Source of the DNA: a virus
Lineage: Duplodnaviria; Caudoviricetes
Reading direction: 5' to 3' (one strand)
IMG/VR virus record: IMGVR_UViG_3300047550_001096
Location: 1 to 61,162 of that record
DNA: 61,162 nt
How positions within the stretch are numbered: position 1 is the first letter of the stretch; every line of letters begins with the position of its first letter. Below, piece after piece: positions 28,300-45,818 of this stretch. The position numbers were made by a program, and so were the translations under genes. Below the pieces are notes generated by a model. That model did no database searches. It had not been told where the DNA came from and was given only the letters and a program-made list of their open reading frames with translations.

Positions 28300-28938
28300 T
28301 TAAACCTCTTCCAGAGATACCGTTATATTCCAAAAGTCAAAGTTGCTACCGCCCCTTTTTACAACAGAATAATTAAAGTCAGCAAAATATACTTGAATAA
28401 TTTGGCTATACTTATTTAAATTTTCGTATGCACTGTTAGTTGTACCAAAGTTAGAGTATTTATCGTATGAAAGATACATCCAAAATGGTCCTTTATGATT
28501 TTCATACCAATCTAATATTTGAACTCCTCCTGCGCCACCGTCTGCAGTATATTCTTCATTGCTTTTATTAAAATATTGAGATTTACCTTCTTCATCAAAT
28601 TCAGCATTTTCAAAATAAGATCTTGATGGTAAATTATTCCATGCCCAAGATATTGTTAATTTATCTGCAATATGATAAGATCTCATTCTTCCATTTATTG
28701 TTCTTTGACGCTGTTCTAACCTCTGTGTTTGAAAATTAATTTCTCCTCTATTGTGGTCAGACAATATTAAAAATTGATTAGTCAATATCGGATCTGTATT
28801 TTCTGGAATTGCAGCGCCTATTTCATACCCATTTGGAACATAAAATCCATCTGTTAGTGTCCCTGAATTTTCAGACCAGAGAACTGCTTGAGGTCTTTGG
28901 TACCTTTTTCTTCCAAGCATGTACGCCGATGTTGTCAT
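28300..28938 (-). CDS. Distal tail (Dit-like) protein
   Basis: Directly follows the tape measure; RQRTINGRMR...WNITVSLEEV. Confidence 0.6.
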   Translation of the reverse strand: MTTSAYMLGRKRYQRPQAVLWSENSGTLTDGFYVPNGYEIGAAIPENTDPILTNQFLILSDHNRGEINFQTQRLEQRQRTINGRMRSYHIADKLTISWAWNNLPSRSYFENAEFDEEGKSQYFNKSNEEYTADGGAGGVQILDWYENHKGPFWMYLSYDKYSNFGTTNSAYENLNKYSQIIQVYFADFNYSVVKRGGSNFDFWNITVSLEEV

Positions 28939-31900
28939 TATGACCTTATGCTCCTAATTCTTTGAGAGTCTGCATATTTAATTTCATCTATTACGGCCCT
29001 AGCAATTGATTGTGCATCAACTGAGGTTCCTGCAACATTTACTCCAACACTATAATTATACACGTTGTTGCTGCTGTTTGTTATAGGTGATGTATTTATA
29101 GCAGTATTTGATATAGTAGTTGGAGAAAGAGTAGAATATTTTGGTTCAACAAATGTAGTATTGGCCATTGGTAACTGTACCATTGTTCTTGGCTTCATAT
29201 CTTTTGCCATGGCGCTTACAGCTCCGCCAATGCCACCCTTACCTTTATCTAAACCTCTTACAACCTGTCCAAAATTATTTTTAAACGATGTTGGCATATT
29301 TCTATTTGTTGCTACTGATCCACCATCGCTGAAATTCTTAGAAAGTATTGATGGGAACTTACTATTATTAATAGCATTTAATAATGGATAAAATTCTTTA
29401 GATGCTGCTTTATTAATTACAAATTCCCCTGGAGTTAGCATTGCTGGGACGGTATCTGATCCAATTGGCTTATATGAAATTAATTTTCCATTATTATAAT
29501 ATGAAGCTTTACCACCATAATTAAAGTTCTTTATCTTTCCACCATACATACTTCCAGGGACAGCGCCAATTCCTGGTCCCTGATTTAAATACTTATATTC
29601 AACTTCTATTACGTGTCTAGTTGTTACAGTTGTATCCCATGATTGTATTTCTTTTGTAATTGCAGATACCGCTGCAAATGCGGCCTCTAATTCTCCAGCT
29701 AATGTTGCTACTATACCTTGAATTGTAGTGATAGTATTTGTAAATACACTACCCTGTGAAACCAGAGAAGTAAAGGCTTTGTCAGTTCTTTCTGTATCTG
29801 TTGCAATATTTTCTAATGGGGTTTCTAGGCCAGCTATTGCATCTTTGAATGCCTGCACTTGTGGGGTAAGGGTATCAAATAGGGCAGAAAGTTCTTGTAT
29901 TGTAGTTAATATTGTTTCTGCATCTTCTCTTATTAAATCCCAATTTTCTACAATTTCTTCTACATCTTCTCTAATCTCTTCAAAATAATCTCTAACAAAT
30001 CTCATTTTTTCTTCAAAAAACTTTATTTCTATGTTTAGTTCTTTAAACATTACAGTAATTGGCTTTTTGTCTCCAGTTAGCGATGCTGGCCGTTTAAACT
30101 CTTCTGGTCTTCCTTGTGGGAATCTTGCTTGTATTGTTTCTAAGAATTGAGCTTTTCTGTCAACGTTTGCATCGCTGCCTCCTGGCATAGCATTATATTC
30201 AGCCATTAATTTATCATATTCTGCAATTAAAGCCTTACGATCTTGTTGCATTTTATCTAGTTGTTTTTCATCTATTGGATCTAGTACTCCAGTATCAATA
30301 GCAACTTTTGCACTCATATTTAATAGCTGTACAGAGTCACTAACTTTCTTTAAAGCATCATCCATTGATAATACAGCAGCTGCTGTTTTCTTCAATGTCT
30401 GCTTATATTTGTCTAGCGCTATCTGTGCCTTTTCCCATTCAAGTTTTCTTTTCTCAATGGCATCAAGCTCTTTCTTCAAAAGATCTTCTTCTGCTTTCAA
30501 CCTGTCTTCTAAATCCTTTAATCTTTTTTCTGCATCAGCAAGTTCTTCTTTTCGTAGTCTATCTATCTCTACTTCATGTTCTCTTATTGCAAGAGTTGCT
30601 TGCTCTCTTAATTCTTGTCTACGATATAGGTCATCTTCAAGTTTAAGAATTTCTGCTTGATTAATCTTTCTTTGTTGCTCAAGATCAAATATCTTTTGGC
30701 TAATCTTAAATTGCTCTTCTTCAATCTGCCTTCTTGTCATACCGCTTGAAGAGCGAAGATTTTCAATTTCAGCTTTACGAGATGCAGCTAAAACATCTCC
30801 AGCTGTTCTTGATGCTGCATCTGCAGCTTGAGCCCTCATATCCTGTGCAAGCTTTGCAGCAGCAGAAATATCTCCCTGTGTTAATGCATCAGCCAATCCA
30901 ATTTGAGACTTCTGCTGATTAATAATATCCTGATTAATTTGTGATATTTTATTAAGAGCTTCTTCTTGTTTGTCATACTTTTCATTAATTGCTTCAGCAG
31001 CTTTATCCATTATTGCAAGATCATTTGAAAGAACAGACGATCTATCTTGTAATGCAGATATTGGTCTGTCAAACTGTTCTTCAATTACTCTTTGTGCATC
31101 ACTTATACGCTCTCTTAAGTCTTCAAGTACATAGTCTCCAAATTGTGGATCATATTTGATCTTAAGATTAATGTCATCAATCTTGTCTTGTTCAGCCTGA
31201 ATTTTTTCATTAATTCTATTGACAGCATCACGGGCACCTTCAATATCTATCTTTAGCTGGAATGTTCTAAGATCAAATGCATTCTGCAATTCTCTTGCTT
31301 GCAAGTCTAATGCAGCAAGGTTTTCATCAATTTGTTCTTGTAATAGATCTGTTTGTGATTTTGTTTTTTGAGCAACTACATCAAGAAGATCTAGGTATCT
31401 TTGTGTTTTACTAATAATATCATCAATGCCTTGACCAGTAACTACTGCATTTACAAAGTTTTGATTTTTTAATACTTCTAAAATGACCTTTTGCTCTACT
31501 TGTTTTTTAGCCAAAATATCATATGCTTCAACCTGTGATTCAAGATTATCAATTTGCTTATCTAAAGATACTAAAGATTCTTCAGACTTTAGTCTTATAG
31601 TCTTTAAAATTTCAGCATTGAGATCTTTTCTTTCCGATACTGAAATACTTAAAAATCCTTGGTCAGCAATCATTCCAGCCATAGTAGCGTCTGAAAGAAT
31701 TCTCTCTATTTCAAGCTGAGAATATTTAGCATCTTTTAATATCTTATAGGCTGTTACTTGATTTTGAATTTCTTTATTTTCTTGCTTAGTCCTATCAATT
31801 AACTCTCCAGCAGTAAGAGTTCTTAGGGCAGCATTAATTTTAAGGAAGTCATCTTTAAGACCAGTAATTCTTCCCTTTTTACCAAGGGTAAATAATTGTT

Positions 31901-34900
31901 TTGACCACAGATTAAACTGCTCTGGATCCATACCCTTTAGTATTCCAATAAAATCTTCATTTAATACAATACCTGCTTTTTTAGCTGCAGCCCTTATTTG
32001 ATCAATAGCCCCAGCTTGTTCTGCAAGCATTGGATTAACATTATCTTTTGTTCCATAAAACTTTCTAATTTCTGAAAGAGCCTTTGTTGCATCTAGACTG
32101 CTTTCTTTAACAAGTTTTAGTCTTTGTGCAATGTCTTCTAGCCAAGAAGTATCTCTCTTTGTTTTTCCTGCTCCACTATCGCTACCGTTTCCATTTTTCT
32201 CTGTTCCAGAAAGTGCAGTTCCAAAAATTTGAGTTAAAGCAGCTTCTTCGGCCTTTTTCTTTATGTCTGGATTTGCTGCTGCAAATGCATCAAGGGTAGA
32301 TTTTGTTACTCTTCTTGCTGTTGGATTTGTTTTTTTATAGGCTGCAGCAATCTCTCTTTGAACAATGGTATCAAACGACTCTGATGTTTTTAATGTAGAT
32401 AGAGTAATCATTGCTTGGAACTGTAATTGTTTAGGAAGCTTAGATAAAATATCCCATTGTTTAATAGCATTATCTAATGTAAGATTTGTTCCCTTACCAA
32501 TATCTTCTTGAACCTTTGTTAAAGCCTCCAGAGTAATTTGGCCATCTGGGAACTTTTTCTTTAAATCTCCAACTTCTTTACCAAGCTTCATTAATTTAGG
32601 AAGAGCATCTGGATTAGTTTCTAGATCAATACTAATTCCAATAAACTCTGGTATTTTAATTATTTCTTCTAATCCAGCTAGAGTTGCGTCTGCCTGTGCT
32701 TTATTTTTACTTGCTATATCAACAACTAGATCTTTTTTATTTTTTTCTCCAGGTATTAGAGTTAATACGGTGCTTAATCTTTGTAGTCCTTCTGTTCCTT
32801 GGGTTTTTACTATAGTATCTATTGTTTTCTTTGGTGGCATACCCGCTTTTGTTAGTGTAGAGAGAAGAACTGATGCTTCGTTTGGAGTTAAAACATCAGA
32901 TGTTACTAAAGTAGATATTTTAATAGTAAGTTTATCGTCTTTCATTTTATCAAGTGTATCTTGCAAAACTGATGCTTCTGCTGCAAGGCCAGCATTATCT
33001 TTAAACTTTTCTTTCATGCCGACTCTAAAGGCTTCCATATATTTATCACGAACAGCACCACGTCCAGATCCAAGTGGACTTATTCTTTCAAATAATGATT
33101 GTCCAGAAATTTTATCAAGATTTCCAGCTGCATCAGACAGCATCTTGGCTTGTGCCTGTCTAATATCTCTTAATCCGCCCTGTCTTTTTTCTTCTAGCCC
33201 TGCAATTTGATCATCTATATCTGATCTTTCTTTTTCAGTTTTTGCAATCTTTTTCTTCAATTCAAGATTATTAATAGCAGAATCAAATTGAGCGTTAAGC
33301 GCATCAATTCCTTGTTGTGATGCTGCTAAGTTTTGTGTAACAATTCCTTGTAGTTGTCCTGCTGCTTTTCCAACAGCAGCTTTTTCTTTACCCTTTTGCC
33401 AAGACCTTAAAGCAGCCTCAACACCACCAAAAATTATAGTTCCTAAAGCAGCACTTATTAAAGCTGGAACGCCTGCAACTCCGCCAGTTCCAACTGCTGC
33501 TGCAGCAGAGCCAGCCTGAATTGCAACTCTTGCTCCTTTAGCAACGTTTAATGCAGTTTTAAGTTTTCCAGCACCTGAAGCTGCTTTTAACTCTGTTGAT
33601 GCTGATAATGCGCTTTTAATACTTTGTGCTGTTTGCATTGCATTATATGATCTCATGCCAGCATATATTCCTAATCCAGCAGCTGGTATTGCAGCACCAC
33701 CAAGTTGTAATGCCTCTGAACGATTAATACCTCTTTGCTGCATGCCAACCATATTAAGATTCTTTATGGCTGCTTCCTGCATTCTTTGACCACTTGCAAT
33801 TAACTCTACCTGAACTTTAAGAGGATCATTAACAAGATTTTCTCCATTTGGACCAAGCAATTGTATTAATCTACCACGCACATCTAATTCTAGTCTTGCA
33901 TCTTTAAGATCTCTTGTAAGTGCAACTGCTATTGATTCTGCCTGTGCTGCATCTAATATTCCCTGAGATACTGCTGTAGCAAGTTGATTTGATAATGATT
34001 CTGCTGCTGTGCCTGCACCAAATGTTGACATTGTTTGATTAAAACTTGCTGCAAGAGATTTTCCAAAATCAGAATTACGAATTATATTTTGACCAAACTC
34101 CATACTAACTGGAGTTATTTCAGTAGTTCTTCCAGCTCTTTGTGCTGCTGCAACTTGTGTAATTGATACTTTTCCAGTTATTGATCCAAGCTCTTCAAGT
34201 CTCTTTGTTGTCATAGTCATAGACTCAGCTTGCTTTTGTCCTTCAACTATATTATTTTTAATAGTAGATGCTTGAGCTTTAAATACCGCAATAAGTCCAA
34301 CTGCGGTTGCAGCTAACATTTTTAATGGACTATTGAGCATAGGCAATAACATTGTTAACATAGAAATCATCATAATGAGATCCATGCTTTTTGCTATTGC
34401 ACTATCTGGGTTCTTTTGAGCATACATTCCAGCAGCCATGGGAGCTGCCATTCCAACCATTTGAAGTGGCATTGCTCTTTGTGTAAAATTCATTCTATTT
34501 AATTGACGCATATTGGTGCGCTCTGCTGGAGTAGCTAGTCTTTGTTGCCCAGTTGCTTCATCTGTTACTGTATTAGCAACTCCACCGTAACCACGAAGGA
34601 ATCCAGTAAATCCTCTTGTCTTATCTTTTCCTAAAGCCTCTGATGCATTATTTGCTGCAATATCTGTACCCTTAAATGAATTAGCAAGTTTTGTGGTAAC
34701 TTTTCTTAATGTACTCATTGAAGCTGCAGCAGCTTTAGTTTCTTTTTCAATACTAGATTTATTTGGTATAAATAATCCAGAGGGGGTTTGCCTATATCCA
34801 GCTGGATCATTTCCTTCAATAAAACCAGGAACTCTATCTGACATTATTGAACTAATTAATGGTGCATATTTAGCACTTTGTCTTGCTGGAATTACCGCTT

Positions 34901-37900
34901 CTCCTGGTGAAAGCATTGCAGGTTGAATATCTCCTGCACCTCTTGGACCAGGTACTGAAAGAATTCCACCTGCTAAACCAAGAATATCTTTGTCAACAAA
35001 TTTAAACTCATCATAATAAGTGTTTGGTTGTCTATTAACTCTATACCTTAGTGCTTCTCTTAATGCCAACTGAGAATCTGAAATATTTGTTAAGCTATCT
35101 AGTTGTCTTATAATTTGCAGTGCCTGTTGTGAATTAACTGGATGTGCTCCACTTACTCCATTAATAGATGTTCCTCTTAATCCTAAATTTAACCAGCTCC
35201 AGTCTCTTGCTATTTTTTCTTCTGTCCAAGAAGCCTTTCCTCTTTTTTTGCCAACTGGAGTAAGATGACTTGGGGTATCTTTTTTATCCCAGTTTAGCCT
35301 AGAAGATATTCCAGGGCGCAACCTTTCTAAGTTATTTTGAAGTATTGCTTTTTCTTCATTTTCATAATAACTCATAAGACGTATTGCATTAGGATTATTT
35401 CTACTTAAAATCTCTTTCCATCTTTTTTCTGCAACACTTTGTTTTCCAACTCTATTTTTAAGAGTGTCCCATTTTTGAAGTCTTCCATATATATCGCTAA
35501 GTCTGGTTATTTTTCTACCTTGAAGTTCTGGACTTCTAACTTTTAATAAATAGTATAACTTTCCTTCAGTTGTATTTTCCCAAGATTCACCTTTGCGTGT
35601 ACTAGTTCTTCCATGCTTTGCTGTTCTTGTTGGATCACCCATTGTTAAAAATCGTTCATTTTTTTGCAAAGCAATTTTTAAATCTTTTTTAGATGCTTTT
35701 GGAATTGAAAAAGAAACGTCTTTTAATTGAATTATTAAATCATCACCTTGTTCTCTATATAGTATATTTGATAAACCTTTTGCTTCTGTCCCAAATAATG
35801 ATTTAAATCCAGCAGCAGACCTTCCAGGCACTGATACTGGCAATAAAGGCGTCTTTCTTGATCCACCAGTTGCCTGCACCGTACTACGTGCAGCACCAAA
35901 CATTAAATCATCAAAATTAGTTGCAAATGATGTTCTTGCAAATGGATTTATACCAGTTGCAAATCCTGGCACCTTATCCTGAATAATTTGACTAATAAAT
36001 CCTGAATACTTTTGTGACTGTTTTGCTGGAATAACTGCTTCTCCAGGAGAAAGCATTGATGGCACAACATCTCCAGCTCCTCTTGGACCAGGAACTGATG
36101 TAGTTCCATCTGCAAACCTCTTTGGAGCTTTCCCTCTTCCAGGAAGGAATAGTCCTGGGTTATTAGCAGCGAATCCTCCCATTGCAACATTTGCTTGAGA
36201 ATATGTTCCGATCAAAGAACTAAGAGCTGCCTGCTCAAGTCTATATGCAGCAGAAAGTTGTTCATGCTTTGAATATAAAGCATTAGTAATAGATACGTTT
36301 TCTAATTCTTCCTGTGTTAGATATTGTGTTTTTAATGCAACGTCAGACGATCCATAAGCTAGCTGCTGGTATCCCTTACGAAGCATATTAACGCCCTTTA
36401 AGGAGTTAGCTACAGCGTTTGCTATTAAACCAAAAGTCATTAAGAAAATTGGACCAATACCGCCAACAACACCAATTATAATAGCAATAGCTTTTTTAAT
36501 ACCATCTGGCAAATTATTAAACTTCTCCGCTATTTTTCCAATATATTCTAGTACTGGAGTTAATATTTCAGCAAAAAGTTTTCCAATCGGAGCTATGGCA
36601 ACTTTTAATTTTTCAATTGATGCAGCAAGCTTATTCATTGGAGAATCTGCTTGAATTTTTAACTCTCGCTTACTCAAAATTGCAAGTTCTTCAGCAGATG
36701 CATTTGTTAGCTGCAAAACACGTGCAGCCTGCGTTCCTTCTTTTCCAATATTATTTAATAATGCAGAAATTCTAGCAAACTGATATTTTCCAAATATCTT
36801 TTCAATTATTTGTGTTCTTTGCAAATCTGTTAATGGTTGTAGTGATTTTGCAAAAGCTGTTACTATGTTTCTTAAATTACCCTGATTTTCTTGAATTATA
36901 CCCTTTAAGTTTATACCAAGATCTGATGCTGCAGCAGCTGCTGCTTTACTTGGATTAATTAATGATGCAAGTCCAGACTTTAGTGCGTTTGCACCTTGTG
37001 CAGCACTAATACCACCTTCTTGCATTGCAGCCATAAAATAAGCAAGATCTTTAACATCTCCACCAAGTTGTTGAATAACTGGTGCTACTCTTGGTACTGC
37101 TTCAGTTAAATCTTCTAGCGCTACAACTGTTTGGTTTTCTACTGCGTTTAAGAAATCAATAGTGCCAGATAGTTGACTCTCGTCAATCTGAAATGCATTT
37201 CGTAAAGCAATTGTTGTTTCAAGAGCTTTTTCTTGTGTTACTCCACCAAGTACTGCTAATTTGTTTGTTTGCTCTACAAGATTTTCAAGACCTTTGCCAC
37301 TAAAACCAGCAGCTGCTGCATCTGCAGCGGTCTTAATAGTATCTGCTACCTTTAATCCATATTTTGTATATTCATCACCAAGTTCACGAATATTTTTTAA
37401 TGCTTGATCAGTTGCCCCCTGATCTGTAAAAATATCTCCATAAACCTTTTTGAATCTAATTACTTGTGTTTCAATTTCTTTGAATGTTCTAATTGCCTGT
37501 GTTCCAAATATTGCTAATGGTATAGTAAAACCAACCATAAGCTGACGACCAGCCCATTGTGTATTTTTACCAAAATTTAAAAGTTTTGTTGCTCCATCAT
37601 CCATCAACTTATTAAATATTTGTTGACGTTGAGTTGCTAGCATTAATTGAGTTGTTACATCTCTATAATTTAATGCTTTTGGAGTAAATTTAAGTGCATT
37701 CATTGCACCCTGAGCATCACGGCCTAGCTGTACATATTGTTGCTGTAGAGTCTTTACTCTTTTATCTACTAACTTACTTACTGTGTCAAATTCATTACCA
37801 AATACCCTGCCAAAAGTACGAGTAGATGCAACACCATATCTAAAATATTCCTTAAGAGATAATTTTGATTTATCTAGAGCAGTAGCAAATTGTTCTGTTG

Positions 37901-38120
37901 CCGTCTTCATTCTAGTCATGGACGCTGTCCACTGACCAGTTGCGTTTACATTATGAAGTAGTGATTGTGCATACTTAGACTGAGCCTGAGTAGCAGTTTT
38001 TGTTCCAACAATAAGAGCACGGTTAAGGGCAGTAATTTCTTTTTCCAAGGCACGAAGTTGTGCCATAGCCTGAGACGTATCAATATTTATAAAAATATTG
38101 CTATTTGTATCTCCTGCCAT
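28938..38120 (-). CDS. Tail tape measure protein (3060 aa) with internal cargo domain
   Basis: TP901-type core (A+GANALKS.LASL.NP), hydrophobic segments, long coiled coils, three D.(V/Q)P.ML(S/T)PGE.VI motifs; follows the chaperone genes. Confidence 0.92.
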   Translation of the reverse strand: MAGDTNSNIFINIDTSQAMAQLRALEKEITALNRALIVGTKTATQAQSKYAQSLLHNVNATGQWTASMTRMKTATEQFATALDKSKLSLKEYFRYGVASTRTFGRVFGNEFDTVSKLVDKRVKTLQQQYVQLGRDAQGAMNALKFTPKALNYRDVTTQLMLATQRQQIFNKLMDDGATKLLNFGKNTQWAGRQLMVGFTIPLAIFGTQAIRTFKEIETQVIRFKKVYGDIFTDQGATDQALKNIRELGDEYTKYGLKVADTIKTAADAAAAGFSGKGLENLVEQTNKLAVLGGVTQEKALETTIALRNAFQIDESQLSGTIDFLNAVENQTVVALEDLTEAVPRVAPVIQQLGGDVKDLAYFMAAMQEGGISAAQGANALKSGLASLINPSKAAAAAASDLGINLKGIIQENQGNLRNIVTAFAKSLQPLTDLQRTQIIEKIFGKYQFARISALLNNIGKEGTQAARVLQLTNASAEELAILSKRELKIQADSPMNKLAASIEKLKVAIAPIGKLFAEILTPVLEYIGKIAEKFNNLPDGIKKAIAIIIGVVGGIGPIFLMTFGLIANAVANSLKGVNMLRKGYQQLAYGSSDVALKTQYLTQEELENVSITNALYSKHEQLSAAYRLEQAALSSLIGTYSQANVAMGGFAANNPGLFLPGRGKAPKRFADGTTSVPGPRGAGDVVPSMLSPGEAVIPAKQSQKYSGFISQIIQDKVPGFATGINPFARTSFATNFDDLMFGAARSTVQATGGSRKTPLLPVSVPGRSAAGFKSLFGTEAKGLSNILYREQGDDLIIQLKDVSFSIPKASKKDLKIALQKNERFLTMGDPTRTAKHGRTSTRKGESWENTTEGKLYYLLKVRSPELQGRKITRLSDIYGRLQKWDTLKNRVGKQSVAEKRWKEILSRNNPNAIRLMSYYENEEKAILQNNLERLRPGISSRLNWDKKDTPSHLTPVGKKRGKASWTEEKIARDWSWLNLGLRGTSINGVSGAHPVNSQQALQIIRQLDSLTNISDSQLALREALRYRVNRQPNTYYDEFKFVDKDILGLAGGILSVPGPRGAGDIQPAMLSPGEAVIPARQSAKYAPLISSIMSDRVPGFIEGNDPAGYRQTPSGLFIPNKSSIEKETKAAAASMSTLRKVTTKLANSFKGTDIAANNASEALGKDKTRGFTGFLRGYGGVANTVTDEATGQQRLATPAERTNMRQLNRMNFTQRAMPLQMVGMAAPMAAGMYAQKNPDSAIAKSMDLIMMISMLTMLLPMLNSPLKMLAATAVGLIAVFKAQASTIKNNIVEGQKQAESMTMTTKRLEELGSITGKVSITQVAAAQRAGRTTEITPVSMEFGQNIIRNSDFGKSLAASFNQTMSTFGAGTAAESLSNQLATAVSQGILDAAQAESIAVALTRDLKDARLELDVRGRLIQLLGPNGENLVNDPLKVQVELIASGQRMQEAAIKNLNMVGMQQRGINRSEALQLGGAAIPAAGLGIYAGMRSYNAMQTAQSIKSALSASTELKAASGAGKLKTALNVAKGARVAIQAGSAAAAVGTGGVAGVPALISAALGTIIFGGVEAALRSWQKGKEKAAVGKAAGQLQGIVTQNLAASQQGIDALNAQFDSAINNLELKKKIAKTEKERSDIDDQIAGLEEKRQGGLRDIRQAQAKMLSDAAGNLDKISGQSLFERISPLGSGRGAVRDKYMEAFRVGMKEKFKDNAGLAAEASVLQDTLDKMKDDKLTIKISTLVTSDVLTPNEASVLLSTLTKAGMPPKKTIDTIVKTQGTEGLQRLSTVLTLIPGEKNKKDLVVDIASKNKAQADATLAGLEEIIKIPEFIGISIDLETNPDALPKLMKLGKEVGDLKKKFPDGQITLEALTKVQEDIGKGTNLTLDNAIKQWDILSKLPKQLQFQAMITLSTLKTSESFDTIVQREIAAAYKKTNPTARRVTKSTLDAFAAANPDIKKKAEEAALTQIFGTALSGTEKNGNGSDSGAGKTKRDTSWLEDIAQRLKLVKESSLDATKALSEIRKFYGTKDNVNPMLAEQAGAIDQIRAAAKKAGIVLNEDFIGILKGMDPEQFNLWSKQLFTLGKKGRITGLKDDFLKINAALRTLTAGELIDRTKQENKEIQNQVTAYKILKDAKYSQLEIERILSDATMAGMIADQGFLSISVSERKDLNAEILKTIRLKSEESLVSLDKQIDNLESQVEAYDILAKKQVEQKVILEVLKNQNFVNAVVTGQGIDDIISKTQRYLDLLDVVAQKTKSQTDLLQEQIDENLAALDLQARELQNAFDLRTFQLKIDIEGARDAVNRINEKIQAEQDKIDDINLKIKYDPQFGDYVLEDLRERISDAQRVIEEQFDRPISALQDRSSVLSNDLAIMDKAAEAINEKYDKQEEALNKISQINQDIINQQKSQIGLADALTQGDISAAAKLAQDMRAQAADAASRTAGDVLAASRKAEIENLRSSSGMTRRQIEEEQFKISQKIFDLEQQRKINQAEILKLEDDLYRRQELREQATLAIREHEVEIDRLRKEELADAEKRLKDLEDRLKAEEDLLKKELDAIEKRKLEWEKAQIALDKYKQTLKKTAAAVLSMDDALKKVSDSVQLLNMSAKVAIDTGVLDPIDEKQLDKMQQDRKALIAEYDKLMAEYNAMPGGSDANVDRKAQFLETIQARFPQGRPEEFKRPASLTGDKKPITVMFKELNIEIKFFEEKMRFVRDYFEEIREDVEEIVENWDLIREDAETILTTIQELSALFDTLTPQVQAFKDAIAGLETPLENIATDTERTDKAFTSLVSQGSVFTNTITTIQGIVATLAGELEAAFAAVSAITKEIQSWDTTVTTRHVIEVEYKYLNQGPGIGAVPGSMYGGKIKNFNYGGKASYYNNGKLISYKPIGSDTVPAMLTPGEFVINKAASKEFYPLLNAINNSKFPSILSKNFSDGGSVATNRNMPTSFKNNFGQVVRGLDKGKGGIGGAVSAMAKDMKPRTMVQLPMANTTFVEPKYSTLSPTTISNTAINTSPITNSSNNVYNYSVGVNVAGTSVDAQSIARAVIDEIKYADSQRIRSIRS

Positions 38121-38145: not shown

Positions 38146-38472
38146 TTAGTCTTGTGACGCTAGAGCAAGAAGAGCTGATTCTGAAAGGTTAATTCCAGAT
38201 GCAGCCTCAATGATTGAATAAACTGTAGGAAGATCAATAAGTTCTTCTAGTTTTTCAACACTGTCCCCAAGCTCTGGCTTATACTGTTGCATTGCAATCT
38301 GAACACATTCAATCAAAAGCGTCATAGACTTGTCATTATCATCTTGGACTGCTGTTAGTCCTTCAAACTTCTTCATAAACTGACGAAGAAGAGAGATTTT
38401 TAGTGGTCTAACTTTGATTTTTGTGCCATCAATTAGAGAAATTTCTTTCTCTTCATGCACGGATGTAGCCAT
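38146..38472 (-). CDS. Tail assembly chaperone (short, gpG-like)
   Basis: Lies between the tail tube and tape measure genes; own TGCTATAAT and strong RBS AAGGAGGAG. Confidence 0.7.
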   Translation of the reverse strand: MATSVHEEKEISLIDGTKIKVRPLKISLLRQFMKKFEGLTAVQDDNDKSMTLLIECVQIAMQQYKPELGDSVEKLEELIDLPTVYSIIEAASGINLSESALLALASQD

Positions 38473-38515
38473 TACTCCTCCTTAATTAAGTTATGTCAAT
38501 TATAGCATAAAGGCT

Positions 38516-39244
38516 TTATTTTTTCATAAGGCTAGGATCTCTTAAATCTGTGTAATCTAAGCCCATTCCTATACCAAATCCAGATTTTCTTGCATTTTGT
38601 CCTTGAAGCGCCAGCACGTCATTGCTGTCTGTTGCCTTGCCTTTACTAAATACCCTGGCCTTCATATCTTCCCATTCTTTTTGACCTTTTACCTTACCGC
38701 CAGAGTTTGCCTTATCTGCATCTATATCAATACCCTGAATGGCTGCTAAAAATTTCTTTTCTTGATAATCTAGTTCTCTTAATGATGATAATGTTGCCAA
38801 TAATTCTGGCATAGAAAGATTTTCCTCTAGCTCTTTATAATCTTTCCATATGCCTATTAAAAATACTTCTGATTCTAATTTTGCTAAATCTAGGCTATCC
38901 CAATTACTTCCACCTTCTTTTGAGTTTGCCTGTTCTTTAATTGACTCTTCAGAATCTTTTTCTATTTTAATACTTCCTGCTATATTTACTATTTTATATA
39001 CCGTTGGCAAATCAACTTGATCTTCAAATTCTGCTAATGTTTTTATTTTAGGATAATATTGTTGCATAGCAAGAAATCCACACTTTGATAGCAATGTAAG
39101 AGATTCCTCATCATCTTTAGCATTTTTTATTTTATTAAATACCGTCATAAAATAACGCAAGTATTTAATTTTCAATGGATAGATTTCTATTCTTGTTCCA
39201 TTTAATAAATAAATAACATCTGTTTTATATACTGCCGTTGCCAT
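38516..39244 (-). CDS. Tail assembly chaperone (long, gpG-T-like)
   Basis: First ~100 aa are paralogous to 38146..38472; ~140-aa C-terminal extension. Confidence 0.7.
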   Translation of the reverse strand: MATAVYKTDVIYLLNGTRIEIYPLKIKYLRYFMTVFNKIKNAKDDEESLTLLSKCGFLAMQQYYPKIKTLAEFEDQVDLPTVYKIVNIAGSIKIEKDSEESIKEQANSKEGGSNWDSLDLAKLESEVFLIGIWKDYKELEENLSMPELLATLSSLRELDYQEKKFLAAIQGIDIDADKANSGGKVKGQKEWEDMKARVFSKGKATDSNDVLALQGQNARKSGFGIGMGLDYTDLRDPSLMKK

Positions 39245-39261
39245 TTTATCTATTCTATCAT

Positions 39262-39296
39262 AACAACAAAGCCCACCGCTAGGGTGGGCCTGTTGC
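39262..39296 (-). terminator. Intrinsic terminator after the major tail gene
   Basis: GGCCCACC-CUAGC-GGUGGGCU followed by UUGUUGUU. Confidence 0.75.
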
Positions 39297-39311: not shown

Positions 39312-39965
39312 TTATGCTGATGCTGGGGTCCAAGTACGATCTATGATCTTACCATATGATCCAGAAACGTCTTCAGGTAGAAGACGGAAAGAAACTTCAA
39401 ACATTGAAGCCTCATCACGCTTTGCAGATACTGTTACGTTCTCAATTGAGAGCGCACGGTATGCAGCGTAAACACGCTCTACATATGCAGAGTCTGCACA
39501 GTCTCCTGTGCCAGGTCCAACTGCAACAATACCACGCTCAACTGGGCACTCACCAATATCTCCTGCGGAGAGATTTAGTGCTTGTCCTGCTGAAGTAGCT
39601 TTATCTACTTCTGGGTCTAGTTGATCGTCGTTGTAAGCAAGAGCCAAGAGAAGATTCTCAAGAGTAGCTTCAGCAAAAGCGGTTGCAAGATTTACCTGCA
39701 TTCCTTGCTTATACAATTTAGCAACGTCAAGAATTTGGTCAACCTGTACTTCACCGAAGTCTGGCTGGAACTGCAATTCAAGACCGTTCATTGTATAACC
39801 AACATTTTTAAAATCTTCATCAACTGGTGATGTTGAAAGTGTGTCTTTGTAAGACTCATCAGTTTCAAAGCCAGGTAGTGAAGCCTCATCTAGTGTGCCG
39901 TTAGCTACGAAAAGAGCTGCTGCACCAACGATGATGTTTGTTGACGTACCACGAGTGTATGCCAT
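39312..39965 (-). CDS. Major tail (tube) protein
   Basis: NIIVGAA, VGYTMNG, VDQ, AEATLENL siphovirus tube pattern; strong RBS, own promoter and terminator. Confidence 0.85.
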   Translation of the reverse strand: MAYTRGTSTNIIVGAAALFVANGTLDEASLPGFETDESYKDTLSTSPVDEDFKNVGYTMNGLELQFQPDFGEVQVDQILDVAKLYKQGMQVNLATAFAEATLENLLLALAYNDDQLDPEVDKATSAGQALNLSAGDIGECPVERGIVAVGPGTGDCADSAYVERVYAAYRALSIENVTVSAKRDEASMFEVSFRLLPEDVSGSYGKIIDRTWTPASA

Positions 39966-44522: not shown

Positions 44523-45818
44523 TTAATTAAATAGGTCGGCATTTGTGAGGAAACGTCCGCCCCATAGGGATTTTTGAACCTGTTTTACAACAGGCTCCTG
44601 CACGATCTCGCCTAGATCGCCAGACTTGCGGAAAGCTGTATCTTTTTCAACAAGATCAACTCGCTTTCCAAACTCATTAAAAGTACCCTTTACTTGGCTT
44701 ACCTCACTTGCTACAGACTTTACTTCGCCTGTAACTGTTTCAAGGGACTTTGTGATTGCATCAACATTAGTCTGTAAAGACTTAACTGTTTCAGCAAGAT
44801 TGCTCAAGGCATTAGTTAGAGATTCTTTAATTTCAGTAACAGACTTAGCAATATCTGCAGCTGTATCAACAACTGCATCAACTGACTTTTCTGCTACATC
44901 TTCAACAGCAGGAGTTTCTGCTGGTGTCTCTTCTGCTGGCTCTGATGCAGGAGCTTCCTCTGCAGGAACTTCTGCTGGAGCCTCTACTGGAGCCTCTGGA
45001 GCAACCTCAACATTGTCAACTACTTCTGGTGTATCTGCAACTGGTGCATCTACAACTTCTGTTGTTTCTTCTGTCATAGGATTTTCCTCCTTTGTCATCT
45101 TAATTGTTCTAATGCCTTTTGCACTATCAACTAAGAACTTTACTGTTTCTGTGTCATTAATATCTTCTACGAATCCAATATTTTTCATCGTACCACTGCA
45201 AGATGGGCAACTTTCTTCTGACTCTTTAGAAAGTCTAACTATGTCGTCAGTATTGCACCAGTAAACAGTATCAATAACAGCTTTAGCAAGATATCCGCTA
45301 ATCTGTCCTTTCTCAATTGAAATGACATTTGCGAATTGATTTGCTGGATTATCAACTAATGATAACTCGTGTAAATCATATTCTTTAATTATGCGAATTG
45401 ATTTATCAATTTTTTCATCATATGTATCATCAGACTTTGTAATATTTCCACCAATTGAAAAACCAGTTAGTGTACCGTCAAGAACTTTTTCCCAAGTATC
45501 TTGAGCCCCCTTTGATACATAAGCTGAAACATAAACACCACTATAGAATTTTTTTGCCTTTGGATCAAAATAACGGTCTTCTTTAAAAGATACAACTTTG
45601 CCAACAGCATTTGGTTGATGCATTTCACGAAGATTTCCACGAAACCTCTTAAATGCATCTATACTTGCTTCAGTTGTGACAATATCGTTTTGCTTGTCTA
45701 CATTGTCTAATGTAGCAAATCCAGATACGATACGACGCTCTTTGTCTACTTTTCCAATAGGCATAGAGAAGCGAACATTGTCGCCATCGGTTGTCCATTG
45801 CGCTTTATTTATGGTCAT
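44523..45818 (-). CDS. Prohead protease fused to scaffold region
   Basis: RIVSGFA, REMH, GFSIGG, ELSLVDNPAN, then an acidic Pro/Ala/Glu linker and coiled coil. Confidence 0.88.
   Translation of the reverse strand: MTINKAQWTTDGDNVRFSMPIGKVDKERRIVSGFATLDNVDKQNDIVTTEASIDAFKRFRGNLREMHQPNAVGKVVSFKEDRYFDPKAKKFYSGVYVSAYVSKGAQDTWEKVLDGTLTGFSIGGNITKSDDTYDEKIDKSIRIIKEYDLHELSLVDNPANQFANVISIEKGQISGYLAKAVIDTVYWCNTDDIVRLSKESEESCPSCSGTMKNIGFVEDINDTETVKFLVDSAKGIRTIKMTKEENPMTEETTEVVDAPVADTPEVVDNVEVAPEAPVEAPAEVPAEEAPASEPAEETPAETPAVEDVAEKSVDAVVDTAADIAKSVTEIKESLTNALSNLAETVKSLQTNVDAITKSLETVTGEVKSVASEVSQVKGTFNEFGKRVDLVEKDTAFRKSGDLGEIVQEPVVKQVQKSLWGGRFLTNADLFN

Follow-up and report, generated by a model that had tools for sequence, protein, structure and literature searches.

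Background

Among recoding events the frameshift that gives rise to the tail assembly chaperones G and G-T is one of the most conserved, and why it has been kept in preference to two separate genes is an old question. The proteins concerned in phage lambda are gpG and gpGT, and the -1 frameshift is conserved among long-tailed phages (summarised in PMC5009743 from Levin 1993 and Xu, Hendrix and Duda 2004, 2013, 2014). A different arrangement, with a short gene and a fused long gene and without a frameshift, is reported for T4-like phages (PMC10885494, citing Vladimirov, Gautam and Davidson 2022, Virology 566:9-15).

The locus described here was found in the IMG/VR record IMGVR_UViG_3300047550_001096, an uncultured phage (Caudoviricetes), and the whole stretch of 61,162 nt that was analysed is referred to as the window. 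With a probability of roughly 0.8 two of its ORFs encode the tail assembly chaperone of a long-tailed phage in its short (G-like) and its long (G-T-like) form, with a separate gene for each form, and that these two genes replace the G/G-T frameshift appears well supported from the comparison with related sequences.

Results

Organisation of the locus

The chaperone pair is situated on the minus strand, along which the order is major tail protein, long gene, short gene and tape measure protein, as in annotated relatives. The following features were identified:

39312..39965, minus strand: major tail protein gene, 217 aa, directly upstream of the chaperone pair
39269..39291, minus strand: terminator-like hairpin (9 pairs, 6 of them G-C) with a T-rich run, 3' of the major tail protein gene
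39252..39260, minus strand: putative extended -10 box TGATAGAAT, 7 nt 5' of the ATG of the long gene, without a Shine-Dalgarno sequence
38516..39244, minus strand: probable gene of the long chaperone (242 aa), with G and T fused in frame by ORF and homology
38954-39244, minus strand: G domain of the long gene, about residues 1-97
about residues 98-103: linker of the long protein
38519-38935, minus strand: T part of the long gene, about residues 104-242
38499..38527, minus strand: putative σ70-like promoter of the short gene from a sequence scan (ATGAAA, 17 nt, TATAAT)
38507..38499, minus strand: TGCTATAAT, the TG and second hexamer of the short-gene promoter
38475..38483, minus strand: putative Shine-Dalgarno sequence AAGGAGGAG of the short gene
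38146..38472, minus strand: probable short chaperone gene, 108 aa, the G equivalent
28938..38120, minus strand: gene of the 3060-aa tape measure protein, which begins 25 nt past the short gene

A preliminary description of this DNA had placed both ORFs, the terminator and the start signals at these positions, and all were found there on the minus strand. It had also stated that the first of the two genes is the long one, with an in-frame extension of about 140 residues, that this gene follows a terminator and has a leaderless start, and that the short gene is preceded by TGCTATAAT and AAGGAGGAG, all of which agrees with the present analysis (hairpin and T-run at 39291..39269, box TGATAGAAT 7 nt from the ATG).

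The 217-aa ORF matches phrog_2175 (E 2e-31), with the major tail protein family phrog_885 as a weak match, and is both similar to and syntenic with Streptomyces-phage genes that carry the annotation major tail protein. The tape measure ORF gives patches in megablast on genes annotated as tape measure protein in the same phages. A search of the window revealed no match to WhiB and no tRNA genes.

Paralogy, family matches and predicted structure

Alignment of the 108-aa and 242-aa proteins with BLASTP gave 41 identities out of 100 over residues 1-100 (E 1e-24), far above chance, so that the paralogy proposed from the letters alone holds; the motifs AMQQY.P and DLPTVY.I are present in both proteins. 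Both match phrog_10504 (E 2e-21 and 3e-25), and residues 132-206 of the long protein match a second family, phrog_10474 (E 1e-14); the two families are matched strongly and neither bears a function label. A Pfam search with the two proteins and their neighbours returned no tail-chaperone family, only sub-threshold noise. Using tblastn, matches were obtained in 129 phage records (127 from Streptomyces phages and two from Rhodococcus phages), and among the 40 matches listed all fall in two pieces, on genes whose annotation reads tail assembly chaperone or hypothetical protein. In cultured phages the homologues annotated as tail assembly chaperone are located between the genes for the major tail protein and the tape measure protein. 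When the best 150 representatives of the G family were inspected, five were found to have at least 200 aa and three of these are complete G-T fusions, which makes the fused form a minority among these 150.

The AlphaFold2 model of the long protein consists of a beta-hairpin and four helices, with a pLDDT of about 85 at residues 10–90, while the model of the short protein is poor (pLDDT 63). Weak matches in BFVD (E 3e-3 to 6e-3) include tail assembly chaperones and the 'Tail assembly protein GT' of phage N15. With VIA the best PDB representative was YqbN (3klu_A, Z 5.3, rmsd 3.6, 85 residues aligned), which we take to be a prophage tail-chaperone-like protein, and the HK97 chaperone 2ob9_B was also matched (Z 3.5); both matches are weak, their Z values lying under the level where a fold match is safe. 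Foldseek against the PDB gave no match at E <= 0.001, HK97 2ob9_A appearing at E 4.4, and no PDB sequence was matched with an E value under 0.39 when a profile was used.

A predicted complex of the T part (residues 105–242) with the major tail protein reached a median score of 0.49 against 0.00 for the best control, which is graded as 'weak support'; contact agreement between the runs was at least 41% and the pLDDT of the partner at least 38. Among 80 solved complexes 58 attain the mark for this score, and among 110 mismatched pairs two do so, counts that hold only roughly since own alignments were used, and passes at or below 0.60 comprise only seven of the 80 solved complexes but both of the passing mismatches.

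Conservation of the two-gene arrangement

Relatives with two genes gave 383 matches in IMG/VR, of which the best 80 were examined. Many of these loci are near-copies, the number of distinct sequences being 56 for the long G domain and 36 for the short protein. A long ORF (231–252 aa) together with a short one (99–112 aa) is found in 76 of the 80, the other four ending too early, and a short length of 77 aa occurs where the contig or the chosen start truncates the gene; one more locus (L087), found in a further scan, has the pair too. The short gene is seen in 73 loci, and wherever its end can be inspected (69 loci) it is intact. The long gene is in every locus seen placed directly before the G and tape measure genes. 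Assembly or sequencing errors are rejected as an explanation, the pair having been found on 76 separate contigs whose sequences have diverged. At this position an ORF of 230–250 aa in front of a paralogue of about 105 aa should be annotated as a complete chaperone pair and not as a mis-assembly.

The frameshift feature of the lambda gpG/gpGT type is absent at these loci, the long ORF being a single frame without a slippery site. The heptamer CCCAAAC was found in none of 82 long genes and in none of 72 short genes, and no other heptamer is conserved in the long gene; A-rich heptamers that are not conserved occur in the linker of 39 of the 82. The ratio pN/pS is 0.38 for the G part of the long gene, 0.24 for its T part and 0.27 for the short gene, and the T part contains an invariant W115 and a C-terminal GFGIG motif.

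Relatives that keep the frameshift

The preliminary description had proposed a search for relatives with a single G and a slippery site whose T frame matches the extension, and such relatives were found. One group of them is a sister clade of uncultured phages with 148 relatives in IMG/VR, of which the best 80 were examined. In 77 of the 80 loci, as classified by BLAST, a single G is followed by a T in the -1 frame with an overlap of 40–67 nt, and all 77 contain the slippery heptamer C CCA AAC in the frame of G. Residues 1–94 of the long protein show 47% identity to the sister-clade G (E 2e-26) and residues 104–231 show 56% identity to its T frame (E 2e-51), while residues 1–105 of the short protein are 58% identical to the same G (E 3e-40) with the C-terminal tail of the G frame included. 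This homology to both frames of frameshifting relatives supports the earlier claim that G and G-T are here encoded by duplicated genes instead of by a programmed frameshift.

In the Streptomyces phages Coruscant, Circinus and MulchMansion T is likewise open in the -1 frame and overlaps the end of G, with no start codon upstream of its conserved part, and the T ORFs annotated as separate genes in such records are probably frameshift extensions. A CTGGGA sequence near the stop of G in the Streptomyces phages was considered as the frameshift site and rejected, being conserved but without a slippery pattern. The better candidate is a heptamer located where the overlap starts, at codons for a conserved NDPN, and there Coruscant and MulchMansion have C CCG GAA alone.

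Transcription and translation signals

When analysing the region upstream of the long gene, a stable hairpin was identified at the same place in all 79 related sources with enough upstream sequence, the sequences of the stems varying between loci while the pairing is kept. A box of the type TGnTAnnnT precedes the ATG in all 79, at a distance of 7 nt in 59, 8 nt in six, 9 nt in ten and 12 nt in four, and no Shine-Dalgarno-like motif was found before the long gene in any of them. A -10 box 7 nt from the ATG together with the lack of a Shine-Dalgarno sequence predicts a leaderless or near-leaderless mRNA for the long gene. A search for sequencing runs that contain this sequence listed no RNA run and a single other run, probably of DNA, with a word fraction of 0.08. 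Leaderless-type starts, with an extended -10 box 6–9 nt from the ATG and no Shine-Dalgarno sequence, precede at least three other ORFs in the window. One of these is a prohead protease/scaffold-like gene at 45818, and a start of this type need therefore not be weak.

For the short gene, a Shine-Dalgarno-like motif was found in 73 of 73 loci and TGnTATAAT between the two genes in 68 of 73. The same type of box and a Shine-Dalgarno sequence are also situated before the single G of the sister clade (21 of 21 loci) and of Coruscant. The TAGAAT box of the long gene, called weaker in the preliminary description, is preceded by TG, which makes it an extended -10, and as both genes have extended -10 boxes their promoters cannot be ranked. 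It is plausible, as that description proposed, that the ratio of short to long protein would be set by the strength of promoter and ribosome binding site. Seen against the frameshift form, the two-gene form points to a loss of the Shine-Dalgarno sequence before the long copy, with the ancestral promoter and Shine-Dalgarno sequence kept before the short one.

Phylogeny of the G domains

A quick tree search with long G domains, short G proteins and G of Streptomyces phages placed each in one group (SH-aLRT 84, 96 and 97, respectively). When the sister clade is included, its canonical single G joins the short G proteins (SH-aLRT 95) and the long G domains fall outside, a placement that is unsafe due to long-branch warnings. 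The major tail protein is 56% identical to its sister-clade counterpart, and it is thus the G domain of the long gene that is the fast-evolving part. Its position outside the short and canonical G would fit faster change after a local duplication, and would fit as well a long gene that is older or came from elsewhere.

Discussion

Proposed function and origin of the two genes

The ancestor of the locus may have had one G gene with T overlapping its 3' end in the -1 frame, reached by slippage at C CCA AAY. A duplication of this G/T locus would then have been followed by the merging of G and T into one reading frame in the upstream copy and by the loss of T from the downstream copy, the slippery site disappearing from both. 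By analogy with lambda, the tape measure protein would be coated by the short protein, present in many copies, and by the G domain of the long protein. The long molecules would be few, their T part would recruit the major tail protein, and neither chaperone would be expected in the virion. The amounts of the two proteins would be set by separate expression signals and not by the efficiency of frameshifting: the long gene would be read from its own extended -10 promoter, just past the terminator, as a leaderless message, and the short gene would keep the ancestral promoter and a strong Shine-Dalgarno sequence, with transcripts that start at the long gene probably covering the short gene as well.

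Tentatively, a recent and independent switch from recoding to duplication can be envisaged, at the frameshift site that is the most conserved in tailed phages. In this switch each copy was cut down to one frameshift product, the stoichiometry formerly given by the efficiency of slippage was encoded anew as a leaderless start for the long gene against a Shine-Dalgarno start for the short one, and the long G domain sped up, perhaps in adapting to a site of its own on the tape measure protein. If this were true the clade and its sister clade would constitute a natural pair in which to ask why most phages hold on to the frameshift so firmly.

A different history, in which the long gene was imported by recombination from a distant phage with a fused or fusable G-T, would leave the function unchanged. 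It draws on the tree, where the short G joins the single G of the sister clade and the long G domains do not, and on the lower identity of the long G domain to the sister G (47%, against 58% for the short protein). The tree placement is that affected by the long-branch warnings, the T part and the major tail protein are equally near to their sister-clade counterparts (56% in both cases), as would be expected if T was inherited vertically and the G domain attached to it changed faster, and no donor lineage with a closer G domain appears among the 150 representatives listed; import is for these reasons considered unlikely.

Two other explanations concern function, and both are regarded as very improbable. 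The short gene could be a redundant leftover, with the long gene working alone or giving a G-like fragment by proteolysis or premature termination, and the A-rich heptamers in the linker (39 of 82 long genes, not conserved) could in principle cause ribosomes to drop off. This is difficult to reconcile with a short gene that is intact in all 69 loci with a visible end, that changes more slowly than the G domain of the long gene (pN/pS 0.27 against 0.38, and 36 against 56 distinct sequences) and that has retained its Shine-Dalgarno sequence in 73 of 73 loci and a promoter of the ancestral type in 68 of 73, and the long gene shows no conserved heptamer. The long protein could on the other hand have taken on a new role, for instance as a tail component of the virion or as an accessory for tail length or host range, in place of a G-T-type chaperone; a G domain evolving faster than its short paralogue and the lack of a match to a curated chaperone family would agree with this. 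Against it stand a T part that is strongly conserved and homologous over its full length to the frameshift-encoded T, W115 and GFGIG included, and a position before the G and tape measure genes that is kept in every locus seen. A pair of chaperones, one short and one long, each from its own gene, is the preferred reading.

Comparison with known systems

The preliminary description had regarded the two-gene solution as an alternative to a near-universal recoding step, and its novelty was there overrated, a short gene with a fused long gene having been reported in T4-like phages (PMC10885494). The two-gene exception is for this reason not a new principle. The T4-like chaperones, as reported, share with this locus the two genes, the long one being a fusion with an N-terminal paralogue of the short one, and the absence of a frameshift. 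They differ in that T4-like phages have contractile tails, while the module described here is of the siphovirus type, with tandem genes on the same strand at the classical position, flanked by the major tail protein and tape measure genes, and in that its close relatives still use the frameshift. That the nearest relatives do so points to an origin independent of the T4 pair. A literature search (supplements aside) gave no siphovirus with a duplicated G and a fused G-T, the report on T4-like phages being the only such case that it turned up. The chaperone locus of an actinophage group also departs from the frameshift rule; as described in the source, its two ORFs are expressed separately and there is no short gene with a fused long paralogue.

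With lambda gpG/gpGT the locus shares the position of the genes and the presence of a short and a long product with a common N-terminal domain, and the roles to be expected by analogy would be the same, the G part binding the tape measure protein and the T part the major tail protein. Unlike in lambda there is neither an overlapping frame nor a slippery site, the long product comes from a normal in-frame gene and G is encoded twice.

The closest likeness in sequence is to the Stanwilliamsviridae Streptomyces phages (Coruscant, Circinus/BillNye, MulchMansion) and the sister clade, in which homologues of G, T, the major tail protein and the tape measure protein follow in the same order, and which have before G the same promoter type and Shine-Dalgarno sequence as the short gene of the window. 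They differ in having one G with a T in the -1 frame and no second copy of G, and the heptamer at the start of their overlap is C CCG GAA in Coruscant and MulchMansion and otherwise C CCA AAC or C CCA AAT. To the T4-like case the locus adds what is probably a second, independent origin in a siphovirus-type module and a clear comparison of before and after, between a two-gene form (383 matches, the best 80 examined) and a frameshift form (148, the best 80 examined) whose tail proteins are homologous. The comparison suggests that two frameshift products can be divided cleanly between duplicates, and swap experiments could build on it in relatives that can be cultivated, the Streptomyces phages among them.

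Results

The window, an IMG/VR virus record, is linear (61,162 bases, G+C 35%, completeness estimate 54%) and its chaperone region is part of a minus-strand structural module.

Genes of the structural module
(-), portal gene (Phage_portal, E 7e-31)
start 45818, (-), prohead-protease/scaffold-like gene, 431 aa (Peptidase_S78, E 4e-7)
(-), capsid gene, after the prohead-protease/scaffold-like gene
(-), several unnamed genes between the capsid and major tail protein genes
39965..39312, (-), major tail protein gene, 217 aa
39244..38516, (-), long chaperone ORF, 242 aa
38472..38146, (-), short chaperone ORF, 108 aa
38120..28938, (-), tape measure gene, 3060 aa

The tape measure protein (28938-38120, -) is very long, and its translation contains the motif P..ML(S/T)PGE.VI three times, two of the copies lying inside near-identical stretches of ~45 residues.

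The sequence details listed in the preliminary description are all present in the window. The short and long proteins are paralogues (41 of 100 residues identical, E 1e-24) and both match phrog_10504, residues 132-206 of the long protein matching a second family, phrog_10474. A search with a G-domain profile against 1.84 billion representatives gave 352 proteins at E <= 0.001; only five of the best 150 reach 200 aa, three of which are complete G-T fusions. Two representatives, P0004 and P0101 (295 and 286 aa), consist of G-T followed by unrelated C-terminal sequence, which might be explained by run-on gene calls or by chimeric contigs.

Through one short representative of the family the locus L086, of an uncultured sister clade, was reached. 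Its order is a terminator, a TGTTATAAT box with AGGAGG, a 111-aa G, a -1-frame T that is open from the conserved NDPN codons, and the tape measure gene. Scanning with the G of L086 gave 148 relatives, and among the best 80 of these G is followed by a -1-frame T in 77 (overlap 40, 49 or 67 nt), all 77 with C CCA AAC in the G frame inside the overlap; G alone was seen in the remaining three, and neither a fused gene nor a second G was found in any of the 80.

When aligned with the sister clade, residues 1-94 of the long protein match G residues 1-97 (47% identity, E 2e-26) and residues 104-231 match residues 2-122 of the T frame (56%, E 2e-51), and residues 1-105 of the short protein match G over residues 1-106, the C-terminal tail of the G frame included (58%, E 3e-40). 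The long gene thus corresponds to the frameshifted product in one frame and the short gene to the unshifted product. The major tail proteins of the two clades are 56% identical (E 1e-82). CCCAAAC occurs in none of 82 long and none of 72 short genes of the window's clade, nor was any other conserved heptamer found in these genes; the slippery heptamer is gone from the clade. The proposal in the preliminary description, that G and G-T are made from duplicated genes instead of by a programmed frameshift, is supported by the paralogy, the matches to both sister frames and the missing heptamer, and the relatives it had pointed to as a check, with a single G, a slippery site and a T frame matching the extension, exist in the sister clade. 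The two genes are almost certainly G and G-T chaperones, hard-wired as duplicates, and the frameshift lost in the window's clade is retained in its nearest relatives.

In cultured phages a tblastn search with the long protein gave 129 records (127 Streptomyces and 2 Rhodococcus phages), all below 60% identity. Among the 40 matches listed the long protein always matches in two pieces, under two adjacent genes annotated as 'tail assembly chaperone' or 'hypothetical protein'. In the Streptomyces phages Coruscant, Circinus and MulchMansion the chaperone genes are flanked by those for the major tail protein and the tape measure protein, the first being a G of ~115 aa and the second piece being in the -1 frame, which is open from a point within the 3' end of G, with the conserved part of T beginning upstream of any start codon. 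This is the classical G/T layout, and the T frame of these phages can be aligned to the extension that the long protein carries in frame. At the codons matching the sister-clade heptamer Circinus has C CCA AAT, and Coruscant and MulchMansion have C CCG GAA.

In GenBank the T of these three phages is annotated as a separate gene from an internal ATG (L001:2788-3144, L002:2797-3159 and L003:2788-3144 in Coruscant, Circinus and MulchMansion, respectively). The conserved part starts upstream of the annotated ATG, in the -1 frame relative to the G that it overlaps, the C CCA AAT of Circinus standing in frame in this overlap, and the annotated genes are probably frameshift extensions not recognised as such.

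An IMG/VR scan with the long protein gave 383 relatives. Among the best 80 of these a long in-frame ORF (231–252 aa) is followed by a short paralogue (99–112 aa when complete) in 76, and in the other four (L042, L045, L071, L080) the contig stops 40–186 nt past the long gene; a more distant locus, L087, carries the same pair. In the relative L079 a gene for a 209-aa SAM-dependent methyltransferase (L079:4742-5371; Methyltransf_25, E 8e-16) is inserted between the two, widening the gap to 776 nt.

The survey of expression signals covered 81 sources (the window and 80 loci; the long gene of the relative L017 was missed by the regular expression), of which 79 have at least 90 nt upstream of the long gene. 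In each of these 79 a stable hairpin with a T-run stands just 3' of the major tail protein gene, the stems varying in sequence between loci with the pairing kept, and the end of an extended -10 box (TGnTAnnnT) lies 7 nt (59), 8 nt (6), 9 nt (10) or 12 nt (4) from the long ATG; a Shine-Dalgarno-like motif was found in none. Homology fixes this ATG, MAT being the first residues of every paralogue and canonical G protein, and with the -10 box so close by the long message is predicted to have no leader or almost none. In front of the short gene TGnTATAAT is present in 68 of 73 loci and a Shine-Dalgarno sequence in all 73. The promoter is absent, with the Shine-Dalgarno sequence kept, in L041, L049, L058, L064 and L067 and, by eye, in L017, so that the short gene of these six relatives must be read from the transcript of the long gene; the gap between the two genes is only 26–28 nt there. 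As the same promoter and Shine-Dalgarno layout precedes the single G in L086, in 21 of 21 sister loci and in Coruscant, the ancestral signals have been retained by the short gene, the leader having apparently been lost from the long one.

These signals fit a low output of the long and a high output of the short protein, the short gene presumably being covered also by transcripts starting at the long gene. Other ORFs of the window, at 45818 (-), 47875 (-), 53773 (+) and 2913 (-), likewise start 6–9 nt past an extended -10 box without a Shine-Dalgarno sequence, and this phage seems to use leaderless-type starts regularly. One of them precedes the prohead protease/scaffold-like gene (45818), so such a start need not be weak. 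The signal differences are no proof of the ratio, and the idea in the preliminary description that it is set by promoter and ribosome binding site strength is testable but unproven.

An AlphaFold2 model of the long protein (alignment of 24 sequences) is confident for the G domain (residues 10-90, pLDDT ~85), which is formed by a beta-hairpin together with four helices; the T part is helical with lower confidence and the C-terminus disordered. Among the BFVD matches was an unnamed 215-aa viral protein (E 6e-13), and proteins named tail assembly chaperone and the 'Tail assembly protein GT' of phage N15 were also matched (E 3e-3 to 6e-3). PDB matches were weak, the top VIA row being YqbN (3klu_A; Z 5.3, rmsd 3.6, 85 residues aligned), with the HK97 chaperone 2ob9_B at Z 3.5 (VIA). 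A predicted complex of the T part and the major tail protein received 'weak support' (median 0.49, best control 0.00); of the 80 solved complexes only 7 passed with a score of 0.60 or lower, as did both of the passing mismatches. Partner pLDDT was at least 38 and runs agreed in at least 41% of contacts. These predictions are compatible with the chaperone reading, which does not rest on them.

Discussion

Orthologues in the related loci are far closer to one another than to the paralogue. Identity to the window's short protein is 64–85% for short orthologues and 38–49% for long G domains, and to the window's long G domain 40–48% and 48–60%, respectively. A branch sets off each of the three groups, long, short and Streptomyces G, in a quick maximum-likelihood tree built from 95 distinct sequences (SH-aLRT 84, 96 and 97, respectively). 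The pN/pS values, from 55 pairs of 11 sequences with synonymous sites near saturation, are 0.27 (short), 0.38 (long G) and 0.24 (T), all three being under purifying selection. This selection and the clade-wide grouping of orthologues argue that the duplication predates the clade and that both copies are maintained.

The simplest reading of tree and identities is that a G/T unit was duplicated locally, that the G and T frames were fused in the upstream copy and T was lost from the downstream one, and that the G domain of the long copy then changed faster. With the sister clade added to the tree, canonical G and the short G form a group (SH-aLRT 95) that does not include the long G, a placement that would also be expected had the long gene been imported from elsewhere; this tree carries long-branch warnings, which leave import a small probability, and local duplication is the reading we prefer.

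According to a review of the lambda system, G and GT are made at about 30:1, the tape measure protein is bound by the G part and the major tail protein by the T part, and neither G nor GT is present in virions; the review describes the frameshift as conserved among long-tailed phages 'except T4' (PMC5009743). Two chaperone ORFs are seemingly expressed separately in Microbacterium cluster EA phages (PMC7302621), and T4-like phages are reported to have a short gene and a fused long gene with no frameshift (PMC10885494, citing Vladimirov, Gautam and Davidson 2022). In the main texts of the open-access articles searched, a tandem pair of a short and a fused long gene in a siphovirus-type module was not found described. 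The window locus shares the two-gene solution with the T4-like phages but has it as a tandem pair in a siphovirus-type module. Since the principle has been published before, for T4-like phages, this locus adds a further case, apparently an independent one, and its clade together with the frameshifting nearest relatives offers a clean evolutionary comparison.
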